From contig JAFGDM010000061.1 of NCBI GenBank assembly GCA_016932115.1, positions 1 through 44,962 of the forward strand: a stretch of DNA of 44,962 bases. The letters run 5' to 3'. This document shows positions 3,955 through 38,181 of the stretch, in pieces. Position 1 is the first letter of the stretch. Every line of letters begins with the position of its first letter. The notes under the pieces were generated by a model. That model searched no databases, was not told the origin of the DNA, and was given only the letters and a program-made list of their open reading frames with translations. The DNA comes from Deltaproteobacteria bacterium. GTDB taxonomy: Bacteria > Desulfobacterota > DSM-4660 > Desulfatiglandales > HGW-15. A program made the position numbers and the translations under genes.

Positions 3955-4067
3955 AGGAAAAATGTGAGATGGTCAAAGCATTTTTAACCAATGAAACTTA
4001 CCGGGCTCAAAAACCCATGTACCATAAAGCGACACCCTAGAGAGGGGGTATGGGAGGAGAGATAACC

Positions 4068-14656: not shown

Positions 14657-15382
14657 ATGGAAAACCAAGCGCATTCCTCGCAAAAGCCCCTCAAAAAGGG
14701 ATGGTTTATATCCCTCATCGACGTCGTGCTTTCTTACTATTCTTATCTGATTTCCCAGCCTTTCCGGAGCGGCCTGGTTTATTTTCTTGCCGGATTGATT
14801 CCTTCGCTGGCATTGGGGTGGCTTATTTTTCCGGCGCTTCTTTATTCCAAACAGCCCCAGCCCCTGCAATTCAACCATGCGATTCACACCCATCCCCAAA
14901 TCGGCATTGAGGGGAAAACAGAGGAGGAACGTTGCTTACAGTGCCACGGTTTCCGGGAAGACGGCACCTTTACGGGCATACCCAATCTTGCAACCTGCAT
15001 GAAGTGCCACGATGATCCGGAATCAACCCTGGGAGAGACGCCCGAGGAAGAGAAATTCAACGAGGAGTATGTGGCTCTCGGAAAAGAGGTGCCATGGCTC
15101 CTTTATCACCGGCAACCGGATTGTGTCTACTTTTCCCACATTGCCCATGTGAAAATGGGTAAGCAGGAATGCAGGACTTGCCATGGCGATCATGGACGGA
15201 GCGAAAAGCTTCCCCTACACCAGAGAAACCGCATCAGCACCTATAGCAGGAACATATGGGGTTATAATATTGCCGGGTATGTTCGTAACCCTTGGGAACG
15301 CATGAAGATGGACAACTGTGCCGATTGCCACACCAAGACAGGCCATGAGGAAAATAATGCATGCTTTGTTTGTCATAAGTGA
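14657..15382 (+). CDS. qrcA: Menaquinone reductase multiheme cytochrome c subunit QrcA
   Basis: N-terminal TM anchor, QPLQFNHAIH, five CxxCH motifs (CLQCH, CMKCH, CRTCH, CADCH, CFVCH), RQPDCVYFSH and a C-terminal ACFVCHK. Confidence 0.9.
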   Translation: MENQAHSSQKPLKKGWFISLIDVVLSYYSYLISQPFRSGLVYFLAGLIPSLALGWLIFPALLYSKQPQPLQFNHAIHTHPQIGIEGKTEEERCLQCHGFREDGTFTGIPNLATCMKCHDDPESTLGETPEEEKFNEEYVALGKEVPWLLYHRQPDCVYFSHIAHVKMGKQECRTCHGDHGRSEKLPLHQRNRISTYSRNIWGYNIAGYVRNPWERMKMDNCADCHTKTGHEENNACFVCHK

Positions 15383-15511
15383 AAGAGCGCGCAATGAGGT
15401 ACCGTACGTCTTCAATACTTTCCAAAACAGAAATGTAGGAACTCTGACCTGGAAGAGGGCGTGATTCGAGGATTGCCGGTCAGCCTCAAGGGAGCCGAGA
15501 GGTATAGACAT

Positions 15512-17872: not shown

Positions 17873-17881
17873 TTGCCGTTT

Positions 17882-17915
17882 ACCCCTCAGGCTCCGGTGA
17901 AGGAGCCGCAGGGGT
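17882..17915 (+). other. GC-rich intergenic hairpin between qrcB and qrcC
   Basis: ACCCCT-CA-GGCTCC / GGAGCC-GC-AGGGGT, followed by TTT. Confidence 0.55.
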
Positions 17916-18015
17916 TTTCCTGATACGGGAGATAGAAGGGGATCGTTTGAAATCCGAATATCGAAATTTTAGAGTAATCAGCTCTGCGGGAAGATTCTCA
18001 CGAAGTACGGAGTAG

Positions 18016-18810
18016 ATGATGAAACAGGAAGAGGGCAAACACAAGTACGGCATGGTTATTGATCTGGATAAATGCATAGGGTGCGGGACCTGTATGGTAG
18101 CCTGCGCCTCGGAAAATAATGTGAGTGTCAGAACGGATGAATCGGACAAGGAGCGCAGCATCGCCTGGATGCAGCTTTTCAAAATCACTAACGGGAAGCC
18201 CTTTCCTCAAACCGAGGTGAGCTATTTTCCAAGACCGTGCATGCACTGTCACAACAACACCCCTTGTGTTTCCGTTTGTCCGGCCTCTGCAACGCATATG
18301 GACTATCACACGGGCATTGTGAGCCAGATCTACACCCGGTGCATCGGGTGCCGGTATTGCCAGGCCGCTTGCCCTTATCATGCCCGGTATTTCAACTGGT
18401 ATGATGGATATGCCTTCATACAGCCGTTTCCTAAGGGCTTGGAACGGCAACTTTCGCCGGAGATTTCCGTGCGCATGAGAGGCGTCGTGGAGAAGTGCTC
18501 TTTCTGCCACCATCGCTTGATGCGGGCCAGAACGCGTGCCTATGCCGAAGGGAGAAGGGAACTGGAAGAACATGAGTATATCACGGCTTGCGCCGAGGCT
18601 TGCCCCACCCAGGCAATTACTTTCGGAGATCTCAACAACCCGAAACACAAAGTGGCCCGGCTCTCCAAAAGCGTCTATGCTTTCCGGCTTCTGGAAAAGC
18701 TGGGCACGGAACCGAAGGTGTATTATCTTTCTACCCGGAATTGGGTAAGAAGGATGGCAGACAACTATCGGCCGGACCAACTCGAGCCGGTAGGCGCTGT
18801 AAAAACGTAA
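18016..18810 (+). CDS. qrcC: Menaquinone reductase Fe-S subunit QrcC
   Basis: DmsB/NrfC-type Cys motifs (CIGCGTCMVAC, CMHC...CVSVCP, CIGCRYCQAACP, CSFC...CAEACP) and GIVSQIYTRC. Confidence 0.92.
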   Translation: MMKQEEGKHKYGMVIDLDKCIGCGTCMVACASENNVSVRTDESDKERSIAWMQLFKITNGKPFPQTEVSYFPRPCMHCHNNTPCVSVCPASATHMDYHTGIVSQIYTRCIGCRYCQAACPYHARYFNWYDGYAFIQPFPKGLERQLSPEISVRMRGVVEKCSFCHHRLMRARTRAYAEGRRELEEHEYITACAEACPTQAITFGDLNNPKHKVARLSKSVYAFRLLEKLGTEPKVYYLSTRNWVRRMADNYRPDQLEPVGAVKT

Positions 18811-18883
18811 TGTTATATGCCATCGTATAAATTTGGTTCTTAGGGGCAGAGATCTTAAGACACGCTGTTAGGAGGGAGAATTC

Positions 18884-20125
18884 ATGGATGCCGCATTGAT
18901 TCCGGACGGATTAAAAAGAACTTCTCCAGGGAAATTTTTCTTGTGGACTTTACCCTGGCTGGGGCTTCTCGCCTGGGGCGGCATAAGCGCCGTGCTCTGT
19001 CTCTTGCTCGGTTTGAACCAGACGAATATGAGCAACATTTTTGCGTTCGCCCTCTGGATCGTTTTTGACCTGGTCGTTATCGCTCTTGGGGCGGGTGCTT
19101 TTTTCACAGGGTTCCTCACGTACATCATAGGAAAAAAGGAACTTAAAGACATCATCAACGCCACGGTCGTCATCGGCTTCATCTGTTATTCGGGAGCCGT
19201 AGCCATGCTTGGTATTGATATCGGTCAGCCTGTCCGCGGATGGTTCATCTTCTGGCATGCCAATGTGCATTCCATGCTCACTGAAGTGTCCTTTTGCATC
19301 ACCGCATACCTGGCCGTTCTTGGTATCGAATATCTTCCTATTCTCCTTGAAAACAGAAAACTTCGGGAAGTCCGGGAGTTCCGCATCTTCGGACACAACC
19401 TGCATCATATCATGGCCGTCTTTGCCGCTACCGGCGTTTTTCTTTCTTTCTTCCACCAGGGATCTCTAGGCGGTATGTTCGGGGTTATGTATGCCAGGCC
19501 TTTTGCGGCCAGGTGGGATTTCTACATCTGGCCTACCACCTTCTTCCTCTTTGTTTTTTCCGCCATTGCAGCAGGTCCCTGCTTCACCATTCTTTGCACC
19601 AAGCTGACGGAAGCAATCAGCCGGAAGAAACTTGTTCCCGACGGGACGATCCAGTTGCTCGCAAAAATCTCAGGATGGCTCTTGGCAGGGTACCTGGTTT
19701 TAAAAATAATCGACACCCTCGGGTGGGTTCACGGCGTCGTTCCCGGCGCAGGGCTCACTTTTATGGATTTCTTTCGGGAAGGCCCTTACGGAGCTTGGCT
19801 GTTGGGATTGGAAATCATTATATGCGGGATCATACCCGTTATCATCCTGATTACGCCACAGGCACGGCAAAACCATGGGCTCCTCATCCTGGCCTGTTTA
19901 CTTAATTGCACGGGAATCGTTCTGAACCGGTTCAATTTCATCGTAGTTAACCTGGCTATCCCGGTCATGCCCTTTGCCAGGTTCTGGAGTTACCTGCCTA
20001 CGTGGCAGGAATGGGGCATCGCTTTGGCCGTTGTCGGTTACGGAATGCTGCTCTTCTCCGCCTCACACCGCTATCTTCCTCTGTTTCCCAGGGAAAAGGA
20101 ATTGAATGCTGCGGTGAGCCGATAA
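18884..20125 (+). CDS. qrcD: Menaquinone reductase NrfD/PsrC-family membrane subunit QrcD
   Basis: About 10 hydrophobic helices, DLVVIALGAGAFFTG, DIGQPVRGWF, SFFHQGSLGG and YLPTWQEW. Confidence 0.92.
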   Translation: MDAALIPDGLKRTSPGKFFLWTLPWLGLLAWGGISAVLCLLLGLNQTNMSNIFAFALWIVFDLVVIALGAGAFFTGFLTYIIGKKELKDIINATVVIGFICYSGAVAMLGIDIGQPVRGWFIFWHANVHSMLTEVSFCITAYLAVLGIEYLPILLENRKLREVREFRIFGHNLHHIMAVFAATGVFLSFFHQGSLGGMFGVMYARPFAARWDFYIWPTTFFLFVFSAIAAGPCFTILCTKLTEAISRKKLVPDGTIQLLAKISGWLLAGYLVLKIIDTLGWVHGVVPGAGLTFMDFFREGPYGAWLLGLEIIICGIIPVIILITPQARQNHGLLILACLLNCTGIVLNRFNFIVVNLAIPVMPFARFWSYLPTWQEWGIALAVVGYGMLLFSASHRYLPLFPREKELNAAVSR

Positions 20126-22913: not shown

Positions 22914-23732
22914 ATGCTCAAAAATGATAAAATTTATCAAAGCTATCACCTGGTCCACTATGAAGATGGTGCTATGAACAGGTATAAGCAGGATTTTGTG
23001 CGCGAGGAACCTCTGCTGATACACGTGGAAGATAGCCCCTATTTTGTTGTTATGCGGACTCCGGGCGATGAGATTGCGCACGCGGCGGGTTTCTGCCTTT
23101 CGGAGGGATTGGTTGAATGCCCTGAGGATATCGCCTCGATCGGTTTATGCGGCGATTTTGATGAAAACAGCGTAATGGTTAAATTAAATGACGAGAGAAA
23201 AAAGCTGGTCTCCGAAAAGCTTGAGAGAAAGGGTTTTTTCAGCCAGATAGGTTGTGGAATATGCGGAAGGGAGATAATAGAAGATGTAACCCAAAATCTA
23301 AGGGTTTTTACCGAAGAATCCGAGATAAGTTACAGCCAGGTGCTCGAGTGTGTGAAAAAATTTTTCCTGCACCAGGAATACTACGTTAGAACACGGGGAA
23401 CGCATGCTGTCATGCTTTTTGACTCGAGACTGCAAATAATTGTAAAATCGGAGGATGTGGGACGCCACAATGCAATGGACAAGTCGATCGGAGCTCTATT
23501 CCTGGCGAATAGGATGTCCGATATCTATTTGGCAGTACTTTCTTCCAGGATCAGTTTCGAGATGATCCAGAAGGCGGCACGTGCGGGAATTCCTATCTTG
23601 ATAAGCCTATCGAACCCCACTTCAATGGCTGTGGAAATGGGATTGAAACTCAACATGACACTGGTTTGTTTGGACAAGAAATCAGGGTTTATCGTACCAT
23701 GCGGAGAAAAGCGGGTCAGAGCGAAAACATGA
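22914..23732 (+). CDS. fdhD: Formate dehydrogenase accessory sulfurtransferase FdhD
   Basis: EEPLLI, MRTPG, GFCLSEG, CGICG, EDVGRHNAMDK and SSRISFEMIQKA. Confidence 0.92.
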   Translation: MLKNDKIYQSYHLVHYEDGAMNRYKQDFVREEPLLIHVEDSPYFVVMRTPGDEIAHAAGFCLSEGLVECPEDIASIGLCGDFDENSVMVKLNDERKKLVSEKLERKGFFSQIGCGICGREIIEDVTQNLRVFTEESEISYSQVLECVKKFFLHQEYYVRTRGTHAVMLFDSRLQIIVKSEDVGRHNAMDKSIGALFLANRMSDIYLAVLSSRISFEMIQKAARAGIPILISLSNPTSMAVEMGLKLNMTLVCLDKKSGFIVPCGEKRVRAKT

Positions 23733-23963: not shown

Positions 23964-24722
23964 ATGCGCCCCTCATTCAAAAGAGTGCCAGCCATAGAAA
24001 AGTGTTTTGCCGTGCTGGATTTGCTTGCCAAATCGAAAGAACCTGTGGGTATCAGTGACATATCCGGAAAGCTGGATTTGAACAAGAGCACGGTGTTCCG
24101 AATCGTGCATACGCTCATGGACCTCAATATCCTTGAAAATCAACGTGACGGCAAATTTGTCTTCGGCACACACTTTTATATCCTTGGAAACATGGCGGGA
24201 AAGCGCTCAAAACTCATACAAACAGTGCATCCTTATTTGGAGAGGATCAACGAAAAAACCAAGCTTTCCGCCTTCTTAGGGTTGCGTTCAGACCGGCAGG
24301 CCATTCTTATCGATAAAGTGGATTCGGCCTACGGCATTAAATTGTCTTCTGAAATCGGCATCCGGATGCCCGCTTTGGCCGGTGCGGGGATCAAAGCGAT
24401 GCTTTCACAGCTCTCGGATGAAGAAATCGATGAAATCCTCGCTCGAACCGAGCTCAAGAGATACACGCCGCAATCCATTGTTGACAAAGCGGCCTACAAA
24501 GAGGAAATCCTTGAGGTTCGCAGACAAGGCGTTGCCTTTGACAGAGAAGAGTACATAGAGGGGATGGTCGCTTATGCAGCACCCATTAATGCAACCGGAA
24601 AAGACCTTCAGGCCGCCATATGGGCTGTCGGCCTGACGCGCCAGGTGCCCAGGGCTTCCATCCCGGAGTTGACACAGTTACTGAAAGGGATCTCCAAAGA
24701 GATTAATTATCGTTTAGTGTAA
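23964..24722 (+). CDS. IclR-family transcriptional regulator
   Basis: VPAIEKCFAVLDLL, HTH ISGKLDLNKSTVFRIVHTL, effector domain with GVAFDREEYIEGMVAYAAPI. Confidence 0.93.
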   Translation: MRPSFKRVPAIEKCFAVLDLLAKSKEPVGISDISGKLDLNKSTVFRIVHTLMDLNILENQRDGKFVFGTHFYILGNMAGKRSKLIQTVHPYLERINEKTKLSAFLGLRSDRQAILIDKVDSAYGIKLSSEIGIRMPALAGAGIKAMLSQLSDEEIDEILARTELKRYTPQSIVDKAAYKEEILEVRRQGVAFDREEYIEGMVAYAAPINATGKDLQAAIWAVGLTRQVPRASIPELTQLLKGISKEINYRLV

Positions 24723-24798: not shown

Positions 24799-25005
24799 AT
24801 GTATTTCAGGGTTTACTGTAATGTAAAGGAGATCGAAGCCCCGGATATGGAGACTGCCGAGCAGATTGTTAAGGATTCGTTGAGAGAGATTATTTGGTTG
24901 CTTCCAGTAACAGAGACGCCTGTAGCGCCTCCAGCGAGAGAACCTAAGAAAGTTGAAGTAAAGGAAAAGAAAGGCGGACATGGTTCCATGACCATGCGCC
25001 ATTAA
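24799..25005 (+). CDS. Small hypothetical protein ahead of bamB-1
   Basis: SD GAGGAGG before ATG 24799; 68 aa MYFRVYCNVKEIEAPDMETAEQIVKD...GGHGSMTMRH. Confidence 0.6.
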   Translation: MYFRVYCNVKEIEAPDMETAEQIVKDSLREIIWLLPVTETPVAPPAREPKKVEVKEKKGGHGSMTMRH

Positions 25006-25042
25006 AAAGTGACGTGGAAGCACTTGAATTATAAACAACCGG

Positions 25043-25064
25043 CGCAGCCTGACATCAGGCTGCG
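25043..25064. other. Perfect inverted repeat upstream of bamB-1
   Basis: CGCAGCCTGA-CA-TCAGGCTGCG, no U-tract. Confidence 0.6.
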
Positions 25065-25088
25065 AAGAGACCTAAAAGGGGTAAAAAC

Positions 25089-27044
25089 ATGAGGTACGCT
25101 GAAACAGGCTTCCAATTGGAAGTGGATTTGTCAAAGGGAAGCATTGATAAGGTGGAGACCGATCCAAGAGATACTGCAATGTATATAGGGGGGCTGGGTA
25201 TGAACTTGAAGTTGCTGTTTGATCGGGTTCCTCCCGGCACCGATCCATGGTCTCCCGACAACCTGCTCATATTCGGTAACGGTCTTCTGAACGGCACATG
25301 CGTTCCCGGTGCAAATCGCGTGTCGGTCGATACGATCGCCCCTTTAAACGGATTTCTGGGGCATTCCCTGATGGGCGGATTTTTCGGGGCGGAAATGAAA
25401 ATGGCCGGTTACGACAGAATAGTCATTCGGGGCGAGGCGCCGGACCTGGTCTACCTGGCAATCCACAACGACAAGGTGGAGATCCGTGATGCCAGGCATC
25501 TTCGCGGGAAACTCATGGATGAAACGCAGACCTTGATCAAGGATGAGTTGAACGACAAAAGAGCCTGGGTGGCTGCGATTGGTCCGGCCGGGGAGAATAG
25601 GGTCATAATGGCTTCAATCGATTGCGGCAACTCGAGCGCTGCTCGAACGGTCGGACCGGTCATGGGGGCCAAAAAGCTGAAGGCGATTGCCGTCCGGGGA
25701 ACAAAGGACGTGTATCTCGCCCACCCCGACAAAGCCTGGGAGATGTGCTCACGCCTGAGGAAGGAGCTTGATGCGAACCCGAATGTCGGGGACTGGATGG
25801 CGACCGATGAGGATGATAGCTTCCATCACAACAACTTCTCTTGGGGCAATGCCCGTGTACGCCGAAAGACCTTCTGGAGCGCGGAGCTCGAAGAGAGATG
25901 GCGGAACCTGAAGTACGACCACATGAGCCGCTGGACAGGTTGCTGGAACTGCCCGAAGGCATGCCACAATCTAATTCAATGGCCGAACCGGCGAAGATTT
26001 TCCTACAAATGCTACGGAAAAGACACCTATCATATGGCCTCCTTCCAGGAGCTCGACTTCACCTTCGAGATACTCCCTATTGCCATGGACTTAGGGTTGG
26101 ACTCATATTCAACGCCGCAGGTTATCGCCTTTGCCCTTGAGCTCTTGGATGCCGGGATTCTGACTGAAAAAGATTTTCCAGGGATGCCCTCCGACGTGAG
26201 GCAAAGGTTTTACTATCTACTTCAGAAAATAGCGTTTAGAGAAGGCATAGGAGATGTTCTCGCTCATGGTACTTCCGGTGCGGCTGCCATAATAGGTAAA
26301 GGCGCCGAGAAATTCGATCACAACACCGTCAAAAAATTCGAACAGTTACCCATCAAGCTGGGCAAACTCAATCCGGCCTATTTCCTTATGATAGCCACAG
26401 GTGAGGAAATGGCTATCACCCAGACTGAAGGCTCCTTCCCGCAGGACCCGATCACTGACCCGGAGCTGAAAGAGGAATTCATCAAGAACTGGATTGCTGT
26501 TCCGGATAAGAAGTTCCATGAGTGGTTCCGGCAGTGGGAAAAACGTGATCAATTGCCCGACGACGCCATGTGCGCTATTTGTGACTGGAACGAGTGCATG
26601 CACTACCTGGATGATTCCTTGGGGCTTTGCGGATTCGTGTCCTCATTCAGAGGCCAGTTCGGCGGCACCACCGGATATCACGTATGGAATATGCCGAAGG
26701 TCATCACCCATGTGGCTGGGATCGAGTTTGACAAAGACAGGCTGTGGGAATTCTTCCAGAGAATCCGGAATCTGGCCAGAGCCCTCAATAACATAAGGGG
26801 CCTGAGAAGACACATGGAGAGGCCGCCGGACGATCACTGGGCGGTAAGGAATGAGGAGTATGAGCAGCAACTACTGACGAAGTATTATGATTTTAAAGGT
26901 TGGACTTTTGATGGGATTCCCACCAAAGAAACTTTGGAAAGACTGAGCCTGGGCTATGTGGCGGAAGAGCTCATAAAAAATGGTGTTCTGACCGGGAATG
27001 AAGTCACTGCCCTCAACGATATCAGGGCCAAGAAGAAGGAGTAA
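25089..27044 (+). CDS. bamB: BamB-like tungsten-pterin aryl-CoA reductase subunit (AOR family), divergent paralog
   Basis: MRYAETG N-terminus, AIGPAGEN, VMGAKKLKAIAV, FSWGNAR, CWNCPKAC, YKCYGK; collinear with 36151-38160; followed by bamC-I. Confidence 0.85.
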   Translation: MRYAETGFQLEVDLSKGSIDKVETDPRDTAMYIGGLGMNLKLLFDRVPPGTDPWSPDNLLIFGNGLLNGTCVPGANRVSVDTIAPLNGFLGHSLMGGFFGAEMKMAGYDRIVIRGEAPDLVYLAIHNDKVEIRDARHLRGKLMDETQTLIKDELNDKRAWVAAIGPAGENRVIMASIDCGNSSAARTVGPVMGAKKLKAIAVRGTKDVYLAHPDKAWEMCSRLRKELDANPNVGDWMATDEDDSFHHNNFSWGNARVRRKTFWSAELEERWRNLKYDHMSRWTGCWNCPKACHNLIQWPNRRRFSYKCYGKDTYHMASFQELDFTFEILPIAMDLGLDSYSTPQVIAFALELLDAGILTEKDFPGMPSDVRQRFYYLLQKIAFREGIGDVLAHGTSGAAAIIGKGAEKFDHNTVKKFEQLPIKLGKLNPAYFLMIATGEEMAITQTEGSFPQDPITDPELKEEFIKNWIAVPDKKFHEWFRQWEKRDQLPDDAMCAICDWNECMHYLDDSLGLCGFVSSFRGQFGGTTGYHVWNMPKVITHVAGIEFDKDRLWEFFQRIRNLARALNNIRGLRRHMERPPDDHWAVRNEEYEQQLLTKYYDFKGWTFDGIPTKETLERLSLGYVAEELIKNGVLTGNEVTALNDIRAKKKE

Positions 27045-27061
27045 AGGAAGGGGGCCTCGCC

Positions 27062-27607
27062 GTGGACAGCAAGCGAAAGAAAACAAAAATAGTAAAAGAA
27101 ATAAAGGTGGATACCAGCAAATGTGTAGGCTGCAGGGCATGTGAGATAGCCTGCTCGGCCTTCCACGCCGTACCGAAATTTAGCTCGGTGAATACCGCAC
27201 GTTCCCGGATCATGGTCGTCATGGACGAATTCCGAGATATATTCGTGCCGATACGGGCCGGTGACTATGCGCAGGCGGAATGTAATGGGAGAAACCGTTA
27301 CGTGATCGACGGCAAGGAGTACGACGCTTGTACCTTCTGCCCGGCCTCCTGCCCTTCAAGGGATGCTTTTAAAGAGCCTGATTCCGGTCTTCCGCTCAAA
27401 TGCGATATGTGCGAGAGTGTCCCGCCCCTGGAAAAGCCAATGTGCGTCGACGCATGCACGTTTGGTGCCTTGACGTATGAGGAAAGGGAAGAGGAAGGGG
27501 CTGAGGAAGAAAAGCCCGGGGATATGGAGATTGTTTTCGAGGCCTTGGTAAAGAAGCATGGAAAGAAGAAAGTCATGGACACCTTCGCCCGATTGTCGAA
27601 GAGCTAA
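27062..27607 (+). CDS. bamC: Class II benzoyl-CoA reductase Fe-S subunit BamC
   Basis: CVGCRACEIACSAFHA, CTFCPASCPSRD and EPDSGLPLKCDMC; GTG start. Confidence 0.88.
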   Translation: MDSKRKKTKIVKEIKVDTSKCVGCRACEIACSAFHAVPKFSSVNTARSRIMVVMDEFRDIFVPIRAGDYAQAECNGRNRYVIDGKEYDACTFCPASCPSRDAFKEPDSGLPLKCDMCESVPPLEKPMCVDACTFGALTYEEREEEGAEEEKPGDMEIVFEALVKKHGKKKVMDTFARLSKS

Positions 27608-27638
27608 CTATCAGGCGGAAAGAAGAGGATAAGATACG

Positions 27639-28790
27639 GTGGAGACTGTAGCCCCATACAAAGAGATTGTAGATGTTATAAAGGCGAGTGGTGGAGAGGC
27701 CTTCAAGAGATGCTTTCAGTGCGGATTGTGTGATGTGGTTTGTCCGTGGAACAGGGTCAGGACATTCAGCATGCGCAAGCTGGTGCGAGAGGCGACGTTT
27801 GGTTTGACGGATATTGAAAGTGAAGACATGTGGCTTTGCACGACCTGTGGAAGATGCCCCCAGCAGTGTCCCAGGGATGTGCAACAAATAGCATCCGGAG
27901 TCGCCCTGCGCAGGATCGCTACTGAATACGGGGTTTTTCCGAAAACCGTGAAGGCCGTGCGGACTGTGGCGGGAAGCCTTGTTGGGGAAGGGAACCCTCT
28001 GAGTGAAGAGCGTTCAAAGAGGGCGAATTGGGCTGAAGGTCTTTCCGTTAACGCCTTTACGGAGGGGATGGAGATTTTGTATTTTCCGGGCTGCTACCCT
28101 AGCTATGATCCGAGACTGAAGAAGGTGGCGAGGGCTACGGCTACTATACTCAAGCGGGCTGGGGTGGATTTTGGGATTCTGGGTGTCAAGGAGAATTGTT
28201 GTGGAGAAAGCATCCGGAAGACGGGCGATGAGGAGTTGTTCAAACGGCTGGCGAGGGAAAATATCAAGGTGTTTATCGACAATGGTGTGAAGAGGATTTT
28301 GGTGTCTTCTCCGCATTGTCTTCATACCTTCAAGAACGAGTATCCTGAATTCAGGGTAAATTTTGAGGTGATCCATATCACGCAGTATTTATATGAGCTT
28401 ATAAGGGAGGGAAGGCTGGAGCTGAAAGGGGAATATGGGAAGACAGTGACGTATCATGACCCGTGCTATCTGGGTCGGCATAACGGCATTTATGATGAGC
28501 CTCGAGAGATTTTGAAGGGGGTGCCCGGTTTAGAGCTGAAGGAGATGCCTGATTTCAGGGTCAACAGTTTGTGTTGCGGAGGTGGAGGGGGCAGGGTATG
28601 GATGGAGACCCAAAAAGGGGAGAGATTTTCCGACCTCAGGATGGAGCAAGCGATGGGGGTTGGGGCCGAGTTGCTGGTGACTGCCTGCCCGTACTGCATT
28701 ACCATGTTTGAGGATAGCCGGCTGACACTCAATATGACTGAGAAGATAGAAGTTAAGGACATCACGGAGATTGTCCAGGAAGTTATTTAG
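27639..28790 (+). CDS. bamD: BamD, HdrD-like (2x[4Fe-4S] plus two CCG domains)
   Basis: CFQCGLCDVVCP, CTTCGRCPQQCP, ENCCG, YHDPCYLGR, LCCGGGGG and TACPYC. Confidence 0.9.
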   Translation: METVAPYKEIVDVIKASGGEAFKRCFQCGLCDVVCPWNRVRTFSMRKLVREATFGLTDIESEDMWLCTTCGRCPQQCPRDVQQIASGVALRRIATEYGVFPKTVKAVRTVAGSLVGEGNPLSEERSKRANWAEGLSVNAFTEGMEILYFPGCYPSYDPRLKKVARATATILKRAGVDFGILGVKENCCGESIRKTGDEELFKRLARENIKVFIDNGVKRILVSSPHCLHTFKNEYPEFRVNFEVIHITQYLYELIREGRLELKGEYGKTVTYHDPCYLGRHNGIYDEPREILKGVPGLELKEMPDFRVNSLCCGGGGGRVWMETQKGERFSDLRMEQAMGVGAELLVTACPYCITMFEDSRLTLNMTEKIEVKDITEIVQEVI

Positions 28791-28822
28791 AGAACCATCC
28801 CATCGGACAAAGGCGGAGAGAA

Positions 28823-31800
28823 GTGGAAAGAGAACCAGTGGAAGAGCAGTTTTTTAGCAGCCCCGAGGGCGGTAATTTTGGAGATGTTATGGTTGTGGGA
28901 GGCGGGATCAGCGGCATTCAAGCGGCTCTTGATCTTGCCACTGCGGAATTCAAGGTTTATCTGGTTGAAAAGGCGCCGACCATTGGCGGGAAGATGGCCC
29001 AACTGGACAAGACCTTTCCCACCAACGATTGCTCCATGTGCATTGAATCCCCCAAGTTCATTGAATGTGCCAGGCATCCCAATATAGAGATCCTGACCTA
29101 TACCGAAGTCGACACCGTAAAAGGGGAAGCGGGGAACTTCAAGGTCAAGCTGATCAAAAAACCCAGATACATTAAGGAGGACAAATGCACAGGCTGCACG
29201 ACTTGTGTTGAATTCTGCCCGGTCAGGGTTCGGGATCCATATAATCAAGACCTGTCTTTGAACAAAGCCATTCATATCTACTTCTCCCAAGCTGTTCCAC
29301 TCGTCACTTATATAGACCCTGAAAGCTGCCTTTATCTTCAAGGCGAGAAATGTTCGATTTGCGCCGGAGTCTGTAAGAATAAAGCCATCGATCTTCATCA
29401 AGAGGAAGAGGAAATAGAAGTAGAGGTGGGGGCGATCATTCTGGCGCCCGGCTACGAGGTATTCGACCCTAAGTTGAAGGGTGACTATGGCTACGGGAAC
29501 TTTGAGAACGTGGTAACAAGTCTTGAGTTTGAAAGGCTTTTGTGTGCCACCGGGCCGTTCGAAGGTGAGATCTTGCGGCCTTCCGACAAGAAACATCCAC
29601 ATAACATAGCTTGGATTCACTGCGTCGGCTCCAGACGGGTGACCCCGGGCGATAACAGCTATTGTTCAGCGGTGTGCTGCACCTATACTCAAAAACAGGT
29701 GATTTTGACAAAGGACCATGACGCCGAGGCAGAGTGTACCGTATTCCATAATGACATCAGGTCCTATGGTAAGGATTTCGAGCGATTCTACCAGAGAGCG
29801 GAGAATTTACCCGGGGTTCGATTTATAAGGAGCTATGTGTCCATAGGAAGAGAGGTCAAGGAGAGCAAAAATTTAACGATAAAATATTCTACTCCGAAGG
29901 ATGGAGTAAAAGAAGAGGAATTCGACCTGGTGGTCCTGTCTGTCGGCTTGAACCCTCCCGCTGATTTTAAGAGCTTGGCAAACAAGTTCGGCATTGAACT
30001 TGATGCTCATGGATTCTGCAAGACCAATCCACTGAATGCCATGGAGACCTCTCGCCGGGGAATTTTTGTAAGCGGAGCGTTTCAGGGTCCTTTAGATATT
30101 CCTGAGTCGGTTGTGACTGCCAGCGGGGCCGGTTCTCTTTGTGGCCAAATCCTTGGTTACCGGCGGGGGAAGCTGGACAAAGAAAGAGAATATCCACCGG
30201 AAAGGACTGTATCAGGAGAGGAACCCAGGGTGGGGGTTTTTGTGTGCCATTGTGGGGCAAATATCGGAAGGGTGGTCAACGTCCCCTCGGTTGTTGAATA
30301 TGCTTCCACCTTGGACAATGTCGTCCACGCCCAGGAGAGCATCTTTGCGTGTTCTACGGACAATGCCCAGCAAATCGCGGACACGATCCGTGAAAAAAGA
30401 CTCAACCGTGTGGTTGTGGCTGCCTGTACGCCTAGGACCCATGAGCCGCTGTTCCGGGACACACTTCGTGAAGGGGGAATCAATCCCTATTTCTTTGAAA
30501 TGGCCAATATTCGGGAACAATGTTCCTGGGTTCACTCCAAAGAAAAGGAAGATGCCACAAGGAAGGCAAAGGAAATCGTGTGCATGTCGGTTGCCAGAAG
30601 CGCGCTCTTGGAGCCTTTACAGGAATTCGAGTTGCCGGTCGACAAGCGGGCATTGGTTGTAGGAGGAGGTTTGGCCGGCATGACCGGTGCTATGAGCCTT
30701 GCTGAGCAGGGATTTGAGGTTTACCTGGTGGAAAAAGATACAAACCTGGGAGGGACGGCACGAAGAATCTATTACACCTTGGAAGGGATGGATGTTCAAG
30801 CTTATTTGCGTGATGTGATCCGGAAGGTTTATCATCATCCCTCCATTCATGTTGTTACAGATGCGACTATCACCGAGGCTTCCGGTTATGTGGGCAATTT
30901 CGTAACCAAGGTGAAGTCCGGGAGAACGGCCAAGGAGATACACCACGGAGTAACCATCATTGCTACCGGCGCTGAAGAATATAAACCGACGGAATATCTT
31001 TATGGGAAAGAGGACGGGGTATTGACTCAGTTGGAGTTGGAGGAGAAGATCAATAAAAGAGAAGAAAAATTGATCAGCTCAAAGACTGTGGTGATGATCC
31101 AGTGTGTAGGCTGCAGACAGCAAGACCGAAACTACTGCAGCCGGGTCTGCTGCAGCCAGGCTATCAAGAACGCCCTGAAACTCAAAGAGATCAACCCTCA
31201 TATGGACCTATACGTCCTCTTCAGGGACATGAGAACGTACGGGTTCAAAGAGGACTATTACCGCGAAGCGTCGGAGAAGGATGTCAAATTCATCCGCTAT
31301 GAGCCGGATGACAAACCCCAGGTAGAAGCGGTTGAGGAGGAAGGTCGCCGCGTTCTAAGGGTTACCGTGACCGACGACATTTTAGGGAAGAAGCTTCAAA
31401 TAGACGCTGACGCCGTCGCTCTGGCGGCCGCCGTTATTCCGTCGGCAGGAACTCAGGAAATATCCCGGTTGTTCAAGGTCGCTTTGAATCCCGATGGTTT
31501 CTTCCAGGAAGCGCACGTAAAACTAAGACCTGTTGACTTTGCTGCGGAAGGCGTTTTCCTTTGTGGGACGGCTCATTATCCCAAGCATATATCGGAGACG
31601 ATCAGCCAAGCATACGGAGCTGCCGGCCGGGCTGTAACGATTCTCACGAAAGATTCAGTCATAGCTTCCGGTGCTATTTGCGAGGTTAATGAGAGTGACT
31701 GTGTATCCTGCGGGGCATGTATTTCAGTTTGTACTTATGGTGCTATAGAATTTGTTGATACACCACGAGGCAAAAAAGCCAGGGTCAACCCTGTTCTCTG

Positions 31801-31951
31801 TAAGGGAGACGGCCTCTGTAATTCAAGATGTCCGACAGGGGCTATTTCACTGAAGCACTTTACTGATGAAGAGGTCTTCTGCGAAATCGACGCGGCGCTT
31901 CACAGCCCTGTGGAATTTCCAGCAATAAACAAAGTCGGCATTGCCGATTGA
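28823..31951 (+). CDS. bamE: BamE, HdrA-like flavin-bifurcating subunit (Cys form)
   Basis: Two FAD motifs ([16 protein letters not shown]), [21 protein letters not shown]-x2-[13 protein letters not shown] and ferredoxin motifs. Confidence 0.92.
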   Translation: MEREPVEEQFFSSPEGGNFGDVMVVGGGISGIQAALDLATAEFKVYLVEKAPTIGGKMAQLDKTFPTNDCSMCIESPKFIECARHPNIEILTYTEVDTVKGEAGNFKVKLIKKPRYIKEDKCTGCTTCVEFCPVRVRDPYNQDLSLNKAIHIYFSQAVPLVTYIDPESCLYLQGEKCSICAGVCKNKAIDLHQEEEEIEVEVGAIILAPGYEVFDPKLKGDYGYGNFENVVTSLEFERLLCATGPFEGEILRPSDKKHPHNIAWIHCVGSRRVTPGDNSYCSAVCCTYTQKQVILTKDHDAEAECTVFHNDIRSYGKDFERFYQRAENLPGVRFIRSYVSIGREVKESKNLTIKYSTPKDGVKEEEFDLVVLSVGLNPPADFKSLANKFGIELDAHGFCKTNPLNAMETSRRGIFVSGAFQGPLDIPESVVTASGAGSLCGQILGYRRGKLDKEREYPPERTVSGEEPRVGVFVCHCGANIGRVVNVPSVVEYASTLDNVVHAQESIFACSTDNAQQIADTIREKRLNRVVVAACTPRTHEPLFRDTLREGGINPYFFEMANIREQCSWVHSKEKEDATRKAKEIVCMSVARSALLEPLQEFELPVDKRALVVGGGLAGMTGAMSLAEQGFEVYLVEKDTNLGGTARRIYYTLEGMDVQAYLRDVIRKVYHHPSIHVVTDATITEASGYVGNFVTKVKSGRTAKEIHHGVTIIATGAEEYKPTEYLYGKEDGVLTQLELEEKINKREEKLISSKTVVMIQCVGCRQQDRNYCSRVCCSQAIKNALKLKEINPHMDLYVLFRDMRTYGFKEDYYREASEKDVKFIRYEPDDKPQVEAVEEEGRRVLRVTVTDDILGKKLQIDADAVALAAAVIPSAGTQEISRLFKVALNPDGFFQEAHVKLRPVDFAAEGVFLCGTAHYPKHISETISQAYGAAGRAVTILTKDSVIASGAICEVNESDCVSCGACISVCTYGAIEFVDTPRGKKARVNPVLCKGDGLCNSRCPTGAISLKHFTDEEVFCEIDAALHSPVEFPAINKVGIAD

Positions 31952-31965
31952 GGAGAGAGATAATA

Positions 31966-32721
31966 ATGGGTGCAGGGGTTGTTTTTAAACCAAGGATCTT
32001 AGGTTTTCTATGCAATTGGTGAGGATACTCGGCTGCTGACCTGGCTGGAGTTTCCAGACTGCAATATACGACTGAAATCAAGCTGATCCGCCTCATGTGC
32101 ACCGGCAGAGTGGATTTGGCGTTCATACTTCGAGCTTTCTCAAATGGAGCAGACGGGGTGTTGGTTGTTGGTTGTTGGCCCGGCGAATGCCATTATCTTA
32201 CTGAGGGAAATTACGGTGCATTGAGCATGACTCATCTGTGTAGAAAATTACTGGATTACATAGGGGTGAACCCCGAGAGATTGGGGCTTGAATGGGTGTC
32301 AGCCTCCGAGGGAAGCCGTTTCGCGGAAGTCGTGAATGACTTTGCGAAAAAGGTAAAGGACTTGGGGCCTTTCGGCAACGCCGAAAATGGATTAAAGATG
32401 AAACTTGAAGCAGTCGACAATTTACTCCCCTACATTAAGCTGGTCGAAAGGGAGAAACTAAGAGTGCGGTTTAAGACAGAAGAAGAATATAACGAATTCT
32501 TCACGAGTGATGAGATAGATAGGATATTTCAAGAAGTAATTGTAAATAAATTGGAAATTAGTCGGATCATGAGACTCCTGCGAGAAAAGCCCCTCTCGAC
32601 CGGGGAAATTTCCGGGCTTTTGGGCGTAACCCCATCTGAAGCATCAAAGCATCTTGGCAGTTTAGCAAGACAAGGATTAATAAGGTTTGACGAAAGCCTG
32701 AAGCGTTTTGTTCCTGCCTAG
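31966..32721 (+). CDS. bamF: BamF, MvhD-like selenoprotein with C-terminal winged-HTH (Sec at TGA 32020-32022)
   Basis: ATG 31966 is in frame with the track ORF at 32095: MGAGVVFKPRILGFLCNW-U-GYSAADLAG...MCTGRV...GCWPGECHY; U occupies the second Cys of the MvhD CxWC motif. Confidence 0.88.
32045..32057 (+). promoter_or_regulatory. Bacterial SECIS hairpin of bamF-1
   Basis: CTGGA-GTT-TCCAG, 22 nt after the UGA, G in the loop; identical sequence in bamF-2. Confidence 0.7.
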
Positions 32722-32775
32722 AGCGAGAGAATTGGAACCAAATTAGGGGAGATGAAAAGGAATAGGACAGCGGCT

Positions 32776-33228
32776 ATGGATAAGGGCAAAATCGATAAGA
32801 TTATAGACAAATATGAGGGCGACGCCGGTTCACTCATTCAGGCATTACTGGAGATTCAGAGCGAAAATCGCTGGCTTCCCAAAGAGGTTTTGGCGAAGGT
32901 AAGCAAGAAATTGAACGTGCCCTTGAGCCGCATACAGCACATCGTGACATTTTATAAGGCCTTTAGTTTAGTTCCTAAAGGGCGTCACGAAGTTCACGTG
33001 TGCACGGGCACGGCCTGTCATGTTCGCGGAGCGCCGCGTCTTCTCGACTCGGTTAAAGACCTGATTGGAATAAGTCCCGGGGAGACGGACATGGATTTAA
33101 AGTATAGCCTGGAGACTGTGAACTGCGTCGGCTGCTGCGCTTTAGGACCGGTGATGGTAATCGATGGTGAATATTACGGAAAGATGTCACCGGCCAAGTC
33201 TGAAGATGTGTTGAAAAACTATGATTAA
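32776..33228 (+). CDS. bamG: BamG, NuoE-like [2Fe-2S] subunit
   Basis: TFYKAF, CTGTACHVRG and NCVGCCALGPV; alternative start 32752. Confidence 0.9.
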   Translation: MDKGKIDKIIDKYEGDAGSLIQALLEIQSENRWLPKEVLAKVSKKLNVPLSRIQHIVTFYKAFSLVPKGRHEVHVCTGTACHVRGAPRLLDSVKDLIGISPGETDMDLKYSLETVNCVGCCALGPVMVIDGEYYGKMSPAKSEDVLKNYD

Positions 33229-33237
33229 GGGAAAATT

Positions 33238-35175
33238 ATGGCAAGGATAAATTCACCTGCTGAATTGGAAGAATTCAGGAAGGACATCATATCAAAGAAA
33301 GATCCAAATAGGCCGTGCATTGCTGTATGCACCGGAACAGGTTGCCTCGCTCTGGGAGCAGCAAATGTGGTTGCCGCCTTCAAAGAGGAGATTGAAAAAC
33401 AGAAACTGCAAAGTAAAGTGGATGTCGTAGATATCAGGGAAACAGGCTGCCCTGGTTTCTGCGAACGAGGGCCTATAATTGTAATTTACCCTGAGGAGAT
33501 ATGTTATCTTCAGGTGCAGCCCGGCGATGCCAAGGAGATCATTTTTGAGACTATACTTGGCAAGAAGATCATTGATAGGTTGCTTTACGTCGATCTCACC
33601 GCCGACAAGAAGGTAGTCCATGAATCCGAGATACCGTTCTATAAGAATCAGAAACGCCTCCTTCTCGGCAATAATATTAAAATCGATCCGAAAAGCATTG
33701 ATGACTATCTTGCACTCGGCGGGTATTCCGCATTGGTTAAAGCCCTTTTTCATCTGACCCCGGAGCAAGTTTTGGAGCTTGTGAAAAATTCGAAATTGAG
33801 AGGGAGGGGAGGAGCCGGATTTCTTACGGGGGTAAAATGGGAATTTGCTCGCAGAAGTCCTGATAAGACAAAGTATGTGATCGTCAACGCCGATGAGGGA
33901 GACCCGGGGGCATTTATGGATAGGGCTCTACTTGAGGGGAATCCCCACGCAGTTCTTGAAGGACTCATTATTGGGGCTTATGCCATCGGATCTCATGAAG
34001 GTTATTTCTATGTTCGTCAGGAATATCCTTTAGCTGTGAAGAATATCGGGATTGCTATCAAACAGGCTGAGGAATATGGTTTTGTTGGTAAAAATATTCT
34101 AGGGTCCGGCTTTGATTTCACAATTAAAGTGCATCAGGGCGCCGGCGCTTTCGTTTGCGGTGAGGAAACGGCTCTTCTAATGTCTCTCGAAGGCAAACCG
34201 GGCGAGCCAAGGCCGAGGCCGCCATATCCGGCCGTGAAAGGGCTCTGGGGCAAACCGACGAACATCAATAATGTGGAAACCTGGGCTAATGTTCCGTTGA
34301 TTATTAAGAATGGGTCTGATTTCCTGACCTCCATAGGCACTGAGGGAAGCAAAGGCACCAAGATCTTTTCATTGGTCGGCAAGGTGAACAATACCGGCCT
34401 CGTGGAAGTGCCGATGGGCATCACCCTGAGAGATATTATCTACAAGGTAGGAGGCGGCATCCCCGGAGGCAAGAAGTTCAAGGCCGTACAGACAGGTGGT
34501 CCATCGGGCGGATGTATCCCTGAAGAATTCTTGGATATACAGGTTGATTTTGACGAACTCGCCAAGGTCGGCGCAATTATGGGTTCAGGCGGCATGATAG
34601 TAATGGATGAAGATACCTGTATGGTTGATGTCGCCAGGTACTTTCTTAATTTCCTAACCGATGAGTCATGCGGCAAATGTACCCCATGCCGTGAAGGCAT
34701 CAGGCAGATGCTTAAAATTCTTACTAATATAAGTAAGGGAAGGGGAAGAGAAGGCGACATTGAGCTTTTGGAAGAGCTAGCCCGGACAACCGGGGATGCT
34801 TCACTTTGTGCCTTAGGTCGCACTGCCCCTAACCCGGTTCTAAGCACGATACGCTACTTCAGAGACGAGTATGAGGCCCATATCAAGGACAAGAGATGCC
34901 CGGCTTATGTCTGCAAGGAGCTGATCTCATACTATATTGATCCGGATAAGTGCCAGGCCTGCATGATTTGCCTCAGGAAATGCCCTGCTGAGGCGATCGA
35001 TGGCGGTAAGAACCGGATCCACATAATTGACCAAAACAAATGCACAAAGTGCGGGACCTGCTTTGAGGTTTGTCCCTCTCGTTTTGGTGCGGTGACCAGG
35101 CTCTCCGGTGAGCCCGTTCCGCCTCCTTTCCCTGAAGAAAAAAGAACTATTGTCAGAAAGAGTAAAGACAAATGA
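33238..35175 (+). CDS. bamH: BamH, NuoF-like NAD(H)/flavin-binding subunit
   Basis: N-terminal thioredoxin-like [2Fe-2S] domain, LRGRGGAGF, NADEGDPG, GAFVCGEET, ESCGKCTPCREG and a C-terminal 2x[4Fe-4S] domain. Confidence 0.92.
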   Translation: MARINSPAELEEFRKDIISKKDPNRPCIAVCTGTGCLALGAANVVAAFKEEIEKQKLQSKVDVVDIRETGCPGFCERGPIIVIYPEEICYLQVQPGDAKEIIFETILGKKIIDRLLYVDLTADKKVVHESEIPFYKNQKRLLLGNNIKIDPKSIDDYLALGGYSALVKALFHLTPEQVLELVKNSKLRGRGGAGFLTGVKWEFARRSPDKTKYVIVNADEGDPGAFMDRALLEGNPHAVLEGLIIGAYAIGSHEGYFYVRQEYPLAVKNIGIAIKQAEEYGFVGKNILGSGFDFTIKVHQGAGAFVCGEETALLMSLEGKPGEPRPRPPYPAVKGLWGKPTNINNVETWANVPLIIKNGSDFLTSIGTEGSKGTKIFSLVGKVNNTGLVEVPMGITLRDIIYKVGGGIPGGKKFKAVQTGGPSGGCIPEEFLDIQVDFDELAKVGAIMGSGGMIVMDEDTCMVDVARYFLNFLTDESCGKCTPCREGIRQMLKILTNISKGRGREGDIELLEELARTTGDASLCALGRTAPNPVLSTIRYFRDEYEAHIKDKRCPAYVCKELISYYIDPDKCQACMICLRKCPAEAIDGGKNRIHIIDQNKCTKCGTCFEVCPSRFGAVTRLSGEPVPPPFPEEKRTIVRKSKDK

Positions 35176-35807
35176 ACGAAATGCTTTTACAGATTGATGG
35201 AAAAGAAGTTAAGGCAAGCGAAGGAATGACCATTCTGGAGGCTGCACGAAGTGTCGGGATATCGATTCCCACACTTTGTCACCACGAGAAATTAAACCCT
35301 TATGGGGCTTGCCGCATTTGCACTGTGGAAGTAGAAGCCGGCGGGAGGACAAATTTTGTTCCTGCCTGCATTTACCCGGCGGCAAGTGGTTTGGTGGTAA
35401 GAACCAGATCTGAGAAAATAGATAAAACCCGCAAAATGATCTTGGAACTGATGCTCTCTCACGCTCCGGATGCCCCGGCATTAAAAGATTTGGCTAAAGA
35501 ATACGGTGCAGACAGAGACCGTTTTGAAAAGGAACCGTCATTTTGCATTCTTTGTGGTCTATGTGTAAGATACTGTGCTGAAGTCAAGAAGAAGAGTGCT
35601 GTCGGATTTATTGACAGAGGACCAAATCGGGAGATAAATTTCATTCCCGAGATCGCATCCAAGGAGTGCTGGAACTGCAAGGAGTGCTTTCCACTCTGCC
35701 CAACATCGTATCTACAGACAGCTTACCATTTAACGGAAGCGCTCGCGTTTCCCTCATCGTCTTTCCTTCGAACTCGCCTCAGAGGGACCCCCATGCTTGG
35801 TGCTTAA
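35172..35807 (+). CDS. bamI: BamI, NuoG N-terminal-like Fe-S subunit
   Basis: IPTLCHH, GACRIC, CILCGLCVRYC and CWNCKECFPLCP; ATGA overlap with bamH. Confidence 0.88.
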   Translation: MNEMLLQIDGKEVKASEGMTILEAARSVGISIPTLCHHEKLNPYGACRICTVEVEAGGRTNFVPACIYPAASGLVVRTRSEKIDKTRKMILELMLSHAPDAPALKDLAKEYGADRDRFEKEPSFCILCGLCVRYCAEVKKKSAVGFIDRGPNREINFIPEIASKECWNCKECFPLCPTSYLQTAYHLTEALAFPSSSFLRTRLRGTPMLGA

Positions 35808-38160: not shown

Positions 38161-38181
38161 GGTGAAGAGGTGGTAGCCGTC

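Follow-up and report, generated by a model that had tools for sequence, protein, structure and literature searches.

We analysed a stretch of 44,962 nucleotides from a deltaproteobacterial genome bin (contig JAFGDM010000061.1, hereafter the window; the bin comprises 3.73 Mb in 323 contigs and is 95% complete), in which the plus strand holds one unbroken array of genes that runs from an FdhD-family gene through two modules for class II benzoyl-coenzyme A (CoA) reductase (Bam). To our knowledge, no tungsten enzyme other than class II benzoyl-CoA reductase is known to reduce an aromatic ring, and the mechanistic work on it has all been done on one protein from Geobacter. The gene under study, at 25089-27044, is the catalytic-subunit gene of the first Bam module and encodes a divergent form of BamB (BamB', or P0001; primed names denote the divergent module), while the second module encodes a canonical BamB (P0002). 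The genes of the array, and the gene that follows it, were as follows.

22914-23732, plus strand: FdhD-family sulfurtransferase gene
23964-24722, plus strand: IclR-family regulator, directly 5' of the divergent module (Pfam HTH_IclR and IclR_C)
24799-25005, plus strand: gene for a protein of 68 amino acids (aa; P0277), between the regulator and BamB', with no Pfam or NCBIfam family
25089-27044, plus strand: divergent BamB' (P0001), 651 aa, tungsten-pterin catalytic subunit of the short-loop clade (AFOR_N and AFOR_C)
27062-27607, plus strand: BamC', the partner with three [4Fe-4S] clusters (214 bits to 4z3w_E, Cys pattern aligned)
27639-28790, plus strand: BamD', HdrBC/HdrD-like with CCG domains (Pfam CCG twice, and Fer4)
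28823-31951, plus strand: BamE', a fused double HdrA-like flavoprotein with Cys in its CxxC site (NDCSMCIESPK; Pfam, and 655 bits to HdrA structures)
31966-32721, plus strand: BamF', an MvhD-like adaptor with a C-terminal winged-helix domain (FlpD and HTH_5/HTH_20) and an in-frame TGA for selenocysteine (Sec) at 32020-32022, codon 19
32752-33228, plus strand: BamG, thioredoxin-like [2Fe-2S] protein (Pfam 2Fe-2S_thioredx, E 3e-50)
33238-35175, plus strand: BamH, NuoF/HydB-like FMN subunit with a C-terminal ferredoxin domain (Pfam Complex1_51K, NADH_4Fe-4S and Fer4)
35172-35807, plus strand: BamI (Pfam Fer2_4 and Fer4)
36151-38160, plus strand: canonical BamB (P0002), 669 aa, with the long loop that contains ILAGLGSPQEM (1127 bits to 4z3w_A)
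38170-38730, plus strand: canonical BamC (284 bits to 4z3w_E)
38766-39917, plus strand: canonical BamD (Pfam CCG and Fer4)
39951-43076, plus strand: canonical BamE, in which Sec (TGA at 40164-40166) replaces the second Cys of the CxxC site (NDCSMUILAPK)
43203-44042, plus strand: BamF of the canonical module, with Sec at codon 19, a C-terminal domain for two [4Fe-4S] clusters and no winged helix
after canonical BamF, opposite strand: DUF362 gene

BamB' and canonical BamB were identical at 341 of 672 aligned positions (51%, BLASTP), and both carried the AFOR_N and AFOR_C domains (E 2e-62 and 4e-50, respectively, in P0001). P0002 is the orthologue of the crystallised Geobacter metallireducens BamB; P0001 scored 695 bits against the same structure, 4z3w_A, and 206 bits against 1aor (phmmer). 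A preliminary description of this DNA had proposed that BamB' keeps the catalytic residues of BamB around a rebuilt substrate pocket. The motifs on which it relied were all present in the translations (YKCYGK, SFHHNNF, DCGNSSAAR and SSFRGQFGG in P0001; MKCFTK, KWHTENF, ILAGLGSPQEM, EQGRSSASR and SSFPLKPP in P0002), as was the 13-residue shortening of the segment before the catalytic His, which BLASTP resolved into gaps of 5 and 8 residues. P0001 also differed from P0002 by 4 inserted residues at FRGQFGG and by the loss of 6 residues (canonical positions 505-510), the latter of which had been overlooked. The catalytic positions were indeed kept: in a 47-sequence alignment spanning all clades, the columns of the tungsten-ligand Cys (C308 in P0001, within YKCYGK, aligned with Cys322 of G. 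metallireducens), the catalytic His (H246, aligned with His260), the E447-G448 pair and the Fe-S-position residues C285, C288, C292 and C514 were each invariant (47/47). By family analogy, we take these last four to be the [4Fe-4S] ligands.

A scan of species-representative genomes with P0001 gave 80 loci, from which 83 BamB-like open reading frames (ORFs) were extracted. The IL.GLGSPQEM stretch was absent from all 77 rows that were at least 55% identical to P0001, and the same 77 rows carried an insertion of the FRGQFGG type (with small variations in L054, L064 and L086; L068-L070 had an unrelated extra insertion earlier in the pre-His segment). All 6 extracted rows at 50-52% identity had the long loop and FPLKPP, as in P0002. 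Thus, the rebuilt pocket did not stand as a remodelling of this particular gene: the loop and the insertion are clade-wide, so that the comparison is between two old clades rather than between a normal gene and a remodelled copy. Carriers of the 77 relatives included Desulfobacterales, Geotalea, Burkholderiales, Thermincola, Dehalococcoidia, Acidobacteriota and others.

A maximum-likelihood tree of 90 rows, each 600 aa or longer (quick search in IQ-TREE under LG+G4, with 4 more distant representatives of the aldehyde oxidoreductase (AOR) family as the root) separated a canonical clade of 8 rows (Shimodaira-Hasegawa-like approximate likelihood ratio test (SH-aLRT) support of 100) from a short-loop sister clade of 78 rows (SH-aLRT 99). 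P0002 fell inside the canonical clade and P0001 outside it, in the short-loop clade; hence, in the phylogeny that had been suggested as a check, P0001 did not cluster with the one characterised enzyme. Within the short-loop clade, clade C (~55-60% identical to P0001; Desulfobacterales, Geotalea, Thermoleophilia and Bacillota) had the motif HEDDEEWHV, and clade B (61-72%; Burkholderiales, Thermincola, Dehalococcoidia, Acidobacteriota, Deferrisomatales and others) had DWMA.DEDDSFHH. Subclade A, which holds P0001, comprised 29 rows that were 81-94% identical, on a stem of 0.28 substitutions per site with support of 100, and carried the labels Syntrophorhabdus, Desulfatiglandales, Desulfobacteraceae and 'Deltaproteobacteria'; the reading frame was intact in P0001 and in all 29 full-length rows. 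P0001 belongs to an old, widespread sister clade of canonical BamB and, inside that clade, to a subclade that has evolved fast and that has a regulator and a small gene of its own. One clade C sequence, P0128, a representative of a 50%-identity cluster, had Asn in place of the tungsten-ligand Cys (YFLKNYSRL).

As set out in passages of two papers, the tungsten ion is bound by Cys322, by a water and by the sulfurs, four in number, of the dithiolenes; the benzoyl-CoA ring lies in a hydrophobic pocket, where His260 and Glu251 are the sole hydrophilic residues; and reduction begins with hydrogen-atom transfer from W(IV)-OH2 to C4 and ends with electron transfer and protonation by His260 (PMC12096430, PMC11971306). 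The same passages describe Glu251, His255, Glu257 and His260 as binding Zn in the substrate-free enzyme and as forming a proton conduit (PMC12096430, PMC11971306), and a review calls these Zn/proton-relay residues invariant (PMC12096430). Product selectivity is ascribed to proton donors that reach C3 and C4 only (PMC11971306), and the Cys ligand to tungsten is described as absent from other members of the AOR and tungsten-containing oxidoreductase (WOR) family except YdhV (PMC12096430).

P0001 lacked this Zn/proton-relay site in the form described. By MAFFT, Glu257 corresponded to D243, His255 had no counterpart and Glu251 aligned with W236; by HMMER, Glu251 fell on E241, in the acidic run TDEDD. 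Because the two alignments disagree under Glu251, a substitute carboxylate is possible on sequence, and the loss that had been claimed for this segment therefore divides into two parts: the loop itself is absent from P0001, but the loss of the carboxylate is uncertain, as E241 may take its place. His255, although called invariant, was itself lost in 5 of the 8 canonical rows, with Tyr in P0002 (which has His at 254) and Val in L048, L050, L056 and L058. Across the whole protein, 99 alignment columns had one conserved state in subclade A and another in canonical BamB. In canonical numbering, these included E251 to W, W259 to F and T261 to H near the His and the loop; Y318/M319/M320 to F/S/Y and L326 to D around the Cys ligand; and G307/A308 to H/N after the Fe-S motif. 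Changes private to subclade A were Q179 to C, Y300 to W, Y350 to L, Y411 to S, K455 to D, H550 to W and D593 to M. The residue after the proton-donor His was His in clades A and B (giving HH), Thr in canonical BamB and Val in clade C.

An AlphaFold2 model of P0001, built on the multi-sequence alignment, had a mean predicted local distance difference test (pLDDT) score of 89.4 and a predicted template modelling (pTM) score of 0.92. Its best match in the PDB was 4z3w_A (template modelling (TM) score 0.94, root-mean-square deviation 1.8 Å, 50% identity), compared to TM scores of 0.74-0.80 and identities of 22-27% for the AOR, FOR and WOR5 structures, of which the best AORs gave TM scores of 0.77-0.80. 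This comparison with the BamBC crystal structure, which the preliminary description had proposed, identified P0001 as a BamB-type protein and not a generic aldehyde oxidoreductase. AOR, FOR, WOR5 and AOR_Aa share the superfamily and the domain pair with P0001; unlike P0001, AORs are described as having no Cys ligand (PMC12096430). The least confident blocks of the model were 231-260, 411-430, 441-450 and 521-530, and the shortened loop and the FRGQFGG insertion lie in 231-260 and 521-530.

Second copies of BamB or BamBC are known from strict anaerobes that degrade aromatic compounds, and some are induced on benzoate (PMC1924859, PMC5109826, PMC13119186). They include Gmet_1802 (66% identical to Gmet_2087) and BamB1 of D. 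multivorans (64%) (PMC1924859, PMC5109826), and bamB1-4 of G. daltonii, which were followed by quantitative reverse-transcription PCR only (PMC13119186). P0001, at ~50%, is more remote than the published paralogues at 64-66%. A 2026 classification of WORs placed benzoyl-CoA reductase (BCR)-type sequences in clades 62 and 63 and gave GmBCR as the only WOR with non-aldehyde activity (PMC13328260); its text passages describe no differences in loop, Zn site or operon. In a full-text search of the main texts of papers, we found no BamB clade described as lacking the Glu251/Zn loop and none such tested.

The preliminary description had credited BamB' with its own full BamC-I electron supply, and C', D', E', F', G, H and I do lie directly 3' of BamB'. 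The order regulator, 68-aa gene, B', C', D', E', F', G, H, I was kept in subclade A, with GHI after F' in the window and in 9 of the 10 subclade A loci that had enough downstream sequence (the exception was L019). The canonical module lay downstream of the divergent one in the window and in L019; upstream of the regulator, canonical E and F genes were present in L013 and L017, and canonical F in L077. Identity between the two modules of the window was 51% for B'/B, 64% for C'/C, 84% for D'/D, 70% for E'/E and 51% for F'/F, which makes the catalytic pair the older part and the electron core the younger. The divergent module encoded the whole feature set of the holo-complex, namely HdrA-like BamE', HdrBC-like BamD', MvhD-like BamF' with Sec and a winged helix, HydBC-like BamGH, and BamI. 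According to a cryo-electron microscopy preprint on the Geobacter complex (10.64898/2026.04.10.717634), BamI is docked by the winged helix of BamF, an MvhD-like adaptor with Sec19, external reduced ferredoxin is accepted by a ferredoxin domain at the C terminus of BamH, and the Cys59-Cys62 pair of BamE adjoins the bifurcating FAD; the divergent module follows the same design, with Sec19, the winged helix, Cys-x-x-Cys and GHI. In L028, L029 and L037, all from subclade A, the BamE' frame was interrupted near the CxxC site in a way that resembled the TGA break of canonical BamE.

Set against the G. metallireducens system as a whole (Bam[(BC)2DEFGHI]2; structures 4Z3W-4Z40), P0001 shared the fold, ~50% identity, the Cys ligand, the His donor and the Fe4S4 cysteines, and the divergent module shared the BamC partner, the D-I gene order, Sec19 and the winged helix of BamF, and the Cys-x-x-Cys of BamE. 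P0001 differed in its pre-His loop (13 residues shorter, without clear counterparts of Glu251 and His255), in HH for HT, in FSYKCYGKD for YMMKCFTKL around the ligand, in the FRGQFGG insertion and the 6-residue deletion, and in its separate clade; the module differed in the extra 68-aa gene and in having an IclR regulator of its own.

Subclade A genes occurred together with canonical BamB. In all five other subclade A genomes that could be reached through their loci, we found a canonical BamB at 76-79% identity to P0002. Two of the five, both labelled Syntrophorhabdus, had a third, long-loop BamB copy at 65-66%, which in one genome had its own C, D, E and F genes and in the other lay on a 3-kb contig with BamC only. 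One Syntrophorhabdus-labelled bin (L091, G001:C7:29000-48900) thus held a canonical copy (79%), the long-loop paralogue (65%) and, on another contig, a subclade A gene; the long-loop paralogue brings the number of BamB types to at least three. Among 401 genomes sampled evenly from the phylum, which may overlap the five and in which 3 candidates were scored per genome, 117 had a BamB-like match at E ≤ 1e-150. Nine, the window genome included and from three families, had a match at least 82% identical to P0001, and eight of these listed a second copy at 53-55% (the ninth, G161, listed one match). Subclade A has therefore been added to canonical BamB and does not replace it. A search of the window genome with P0001 gave 13 matches beyond P0001 and P0002, the best at 33% identity, which represent ~10 other AOR-family genes. 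In clade B, the pairing took another form: a lone B'C' pair followed a canonical-type BamB-I set in L066, with the same order in L044 and L051 (where BamB is outside the retrieved sequence), and a B'C' pair stood head-to-head with canonical BamB in L048, L050, L052, L053, L056 and L058. Such lone pairs beside canonical sets suggest interchangeable catalytic modules on one electron core.

The regulator and the small gene distinguish the operon further. All NCBIfam matches of the window's IclR protein were under their cut-offs. An IclR-family gene, 50-84% identical to the window's, immediately preceded the small ORF and BamB' in 19 of the 31 subclade A loci; an IclR gene at 26-28% identity stood on the opposite strand in L011 and L022; a TetR gene and an FdhA-like gene took the place directly upstream in six loci (L029, L030 and L034-L037); an FdhA-like gene separated IclR from BamB' in L015; and three loci had too little upstream sequence. 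The 68-aa gene, with AGGAGG 8 nt before its ATG, had an unbroken frame in the window and in 29 of the 31 loci (the other two have <210 nt upstream), and was found in none of the 49 other loci at E ≤ 0.01. Among 24 ungapped sequences (276 pairs), differences per site at codon positions 1, 2 and 3 were 0.145, 0.119 and 0.354, as would be expected of a gene that changes in a coding pattern. Invariant residues of the protein included Cys7, EIEA at 11-14, Trp33 and a C-terminal G-x-G-S-M-T-x-R-H. Pfam and NCBIfam gave no match for it; a profile search gave 355 clusters, of which the 120 listed were 68-69 aa long and, where named, called 'hypothetical protein' only, and in the protein atlas it fell into clusters of hypothetical proteins only. 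Its fold model (pLDDT 55.9, one helix) was unusable, and a predicted complex with BamB' (score 0.01, mark 0.32) gave no evidence either way. Since the gene is confined to subclade A, it is a candidate subunit or maturation factor of the enzyme. A conserved 'antisense ORF' upstream of BamB' was rejected as the shadow of this plus-strand gene, and no riboswitch or known RNA was matched by Rfam in the whole window.

Given the family, fold, catalytic residues, subunit set, clade structure and co-occurrence described above, the explanation that we favour, and that we hold to have an even chance of being right, is that P0001 serves as the catalytic subunit, with a tungsten-bis-pterin centre, of a second class II aryl-CoA ring reductase that is complete and separately regulated and in which the substrate range or the proton path has been altered. 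Because P0001 keeps the Cys ligand and the His donor, the core chemistry would be available to it and, with the Fe-S cysteines and the BamC partner kept as well, Birch-type aryl-CoA ring reduction by the BamB' complex is a well-supported prediction. In the mechanism that we propose, BamB'C' would work on its own HdrA-type bifurcating core, D'E'F', together with an NADH/ferredoxin confurcating GHI unit, and low-potential electrons would reach BamB' through BamC'. A thioester-activated aromatic ring would bind above a W(IV)-OH2 centre ligated by Cys308, as in the Geobacter enzyme, and would take up a hydrogen atom and then an electron, plus a proton from His246. In the short-loop clade, the loop of the Glu251/Zn site is 13 residues shorter, the residues beside the Cys ligand and the His have been exchanged, and the FRGQFGG insertion is fixed. 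As the short-loop subunit co-exists with canonical BamB, we infer a different substrate range or protonation geometry, and the lone B'C' pairs beside canonical BCDEFGHI sets in other lineages point to a ring-substituted analogue of benzoyl-CoA, or to benzoyl-CoA together with analogues, rather than to a plain duplicate. That the substrate differs from benzoyl-CoA is plausible, if conjectural. More specifically, and only tentatively, subclade A may be a distinct tungsten aryl-CoA reductase with a physiological substrate other than benzoyl-CoA; this could be a substituted or modified aryl-CoA, or the chemistry could be altered through a rebuilt proton path (His-His, and Trp or a relocated Glu for Glu251), and the 68-aa protein would be its clade-specific subunit or maturation factor. 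If this were true, it would be the second reaction type known for BamB-type tungsten enzymes.

Several observations weigh against an altered substrate range or proton path. The model is least confident in the rebuilt segments (pLDDT 61-78 at 231-260 and 67 at 521-530), and the acidic run TDEDD just before the His may stand in for Glu251. No CoA ligase, decarboxylase, hydratase or ring-pathway gene was conserved beside the operon in the window and the 31 subclade A loci, and none of the neighbouring genes pointed to the substituted, heteroaromatic or polycyclic aryl-CoA that the preliminary description had named as candidate substrates. The window genome held one Oah (BamA) ring hydrolase above the curated cut-off (551 bits) and one UbiD-family gene, so that it gave no sign of a second downstream pathway, and these counts argue mildly for a shared lower pathway. 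The full-text literature that we searched reported neither biochemistry nor proteomics nor transcripts for any short-loop BamB. Finally, the differing electron input of the two modules could by itself explain why both are kept.

That last point underlies the strongest alternative, which we rate as rather unlikely: BamB'-I would be a benzoyl-CoA reductase isoenzyme with the same substrate and another form of energy coupling, in which GHI confurcation is set against a GHI-less canonical BamBCDEF fed by ferredoxin, and both would be kept for different redox regimes, such as syntrophic and respiratory growth. The preliminary description missed that the sole BamGHI set of the locus belongs to the divergent module, as it does in the 9 subclade A loci noted above, and that the canonical module consists of BamCDEF only beside its BamB. 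It is thus the canonical module, not the divergent one, that has the unusual electron input, with Sec in the CxxC pair of BamE, a ferredoxin domain on BamF and no GHI. The last 84 residues of the canonical-module BamF matched the ferredoxin domain at the C terminus of the window's BamH with 79% identity; as this is far above the 51% of F'/F, it looks like a recent domain graft that gave a GHI-less electron input. The corresponding domain in Geobacter is the one reported to accept reduced ferredoxin (10.64898/2026.04.10.717634), and the canonical module probably takes electrons from ferredoxin directly. The kept catalytic Cys and His of BamB' and the single Oah of the genome also fit an isoenzyme. 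However, such an isoenzyme would leave unexplained both the clade-wide difference in conservation around the Cys ligand and the His, and the lone B'C' pairs that have been added to canonical BCDEFGHI sets in clade B. Moreover, three other BamH-like genes (50-56% identical) lie elsewhere in the window genome and could serve the canonical module, so that it may have a remote GHI set.

An altogether different reaction with related chemistry is improbable. BamB' might reduce the ring more deeply or at other places (four electrons, other carbons), remove a hydroxyl, amino or halogen substituent reductively, or run mainly in the aromatising direction. BamBC itself is said, in work attributed to Kung et al. 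in 2009, to use 4-hydroxybenzoyl-CoA and to disproportionate dienoyl-CoA. The second His after the proton-donor His in clades A and B and the rebuilding of the carboxylate-bearing loop would suit such a change, since selectivity is reported to rest on proton donors that reach C3 and C4 only (PMC11971306), but direct evidence and specific neighbour genes are both wanting, and the cofactor and partner set are the same as those of the dearomatising enzyme. That BamB' is a decaying or functionless paralogue is scarcely credible, because its frames are intact, identity is 81-94% across several orders, the catalytic residues are invariant, and the operon is conserved together with a small gene that changes in a coding pattern; no RNA data set was listed as covering 24799-34798, and two RNA libraries from the same study as the DNA gave three exact contigs, all on canonical BamB (37061-37223 and 37451-37634) and canonical BamF (43776-43931), with short partial matches to conserved BamE/BamH motifs elsewhere in the window, and missing cover of BamB' in such data is no evidence.

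The clade bears on several questions. A large and widely distributed sister clade of BamB keeps the Cys-W-OH2/His core without the Zn/Glu251 loop that the review calls invariant, and this natural variation can be used to ask which elements of the active site Birch-type chemistry requires. The clade also supplies concrete candidates for the long-open role of the 'extra' BamB copies in strict anaerobes. The two apparent designs of electron input that stand side by side here, GHI confurcation and a ferredoxin domain grafted on BamF, bear on how energy-limited syntrophs and sulfate reducers reach such low potentials. Environmental counts of the bamB marker probably pool at least three enzyme types.

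Genes near the operon in subclade A encoded regulators, FdhA-like proteins, a TAXI-TRAP transporter, an Iso_dh-family dehydrogenase, MoeA-PBP, an ABC transporter, PhoU and DUF362, and none recurred throughout the subclade. FdhA-like genes were found in 10 subclade A loci overall, including nearby positions in L012, L015, L018 and L019. They encode a cytoplasmic oxidoreductase of ~690 aa of the molybdenum or tungsten bis(pyranopterin guanine dinucleotide) type (Fdh-alpha at 394 bits, below the cut-off of 666) and are absent from the window. The TAXI-TRAP transporter occurred in 4 loci, in 3 of them with the Iso_dh-family dehydrogenase. MoeA-PBP, the ABC transporter and PhoU came from 4 Syntrophorhabdus-labelled loci; in L023, L024, L027 and L033, the region upstream of the regulator held two MoeA genes (one fused to a periplasmic-binding-like domain), two ABC ATPases, two permeases and PhoU, which may supply an oxyanion or cofactor. 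FdhD-family genes recurred in or beside bam clusters of all types (the window, L011, L040, L068, L070, L073, L075, L079, L082, L083 and L088), and an FdhD 'chaperone' is reported within the expressed bam cluster of the benzene degrader ORM2 (PMC13101534). FdhD may act in the maturation of the tungsten cofactor or of the neighbouring FdhA-like enzyme.

As a profile partner, 4-hydroxybenzoyl-CoA reductase was uninformative, with a match above the cut-off in 1 of 5 genomes. Two subclade A genomes (G002 and G003) each had 34 matches to the family of its alpha subunit, nearly all below the cut-off, which we read as a large expansion of molybdenum enzymes of the xanthine-dehydrogenase family. Elsewhere in the window, positions 14657-20125 held a QrcABCD-like menaquinone reductase cluster, made up of a cytochrome c7-like protein, QrcB (498 bits, above the NCBIfam cut-off), a 4Fe-4S protein and an NrfD-like membrane protein; Qrc-type menaquinone reductase clusters are typical of sulfate reducers. 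The region 862-11951 encoded type IV pilin-like proteins (N_methyl, PilW and PilX), followed by an ORF of 2633 aa at 4050-11951.

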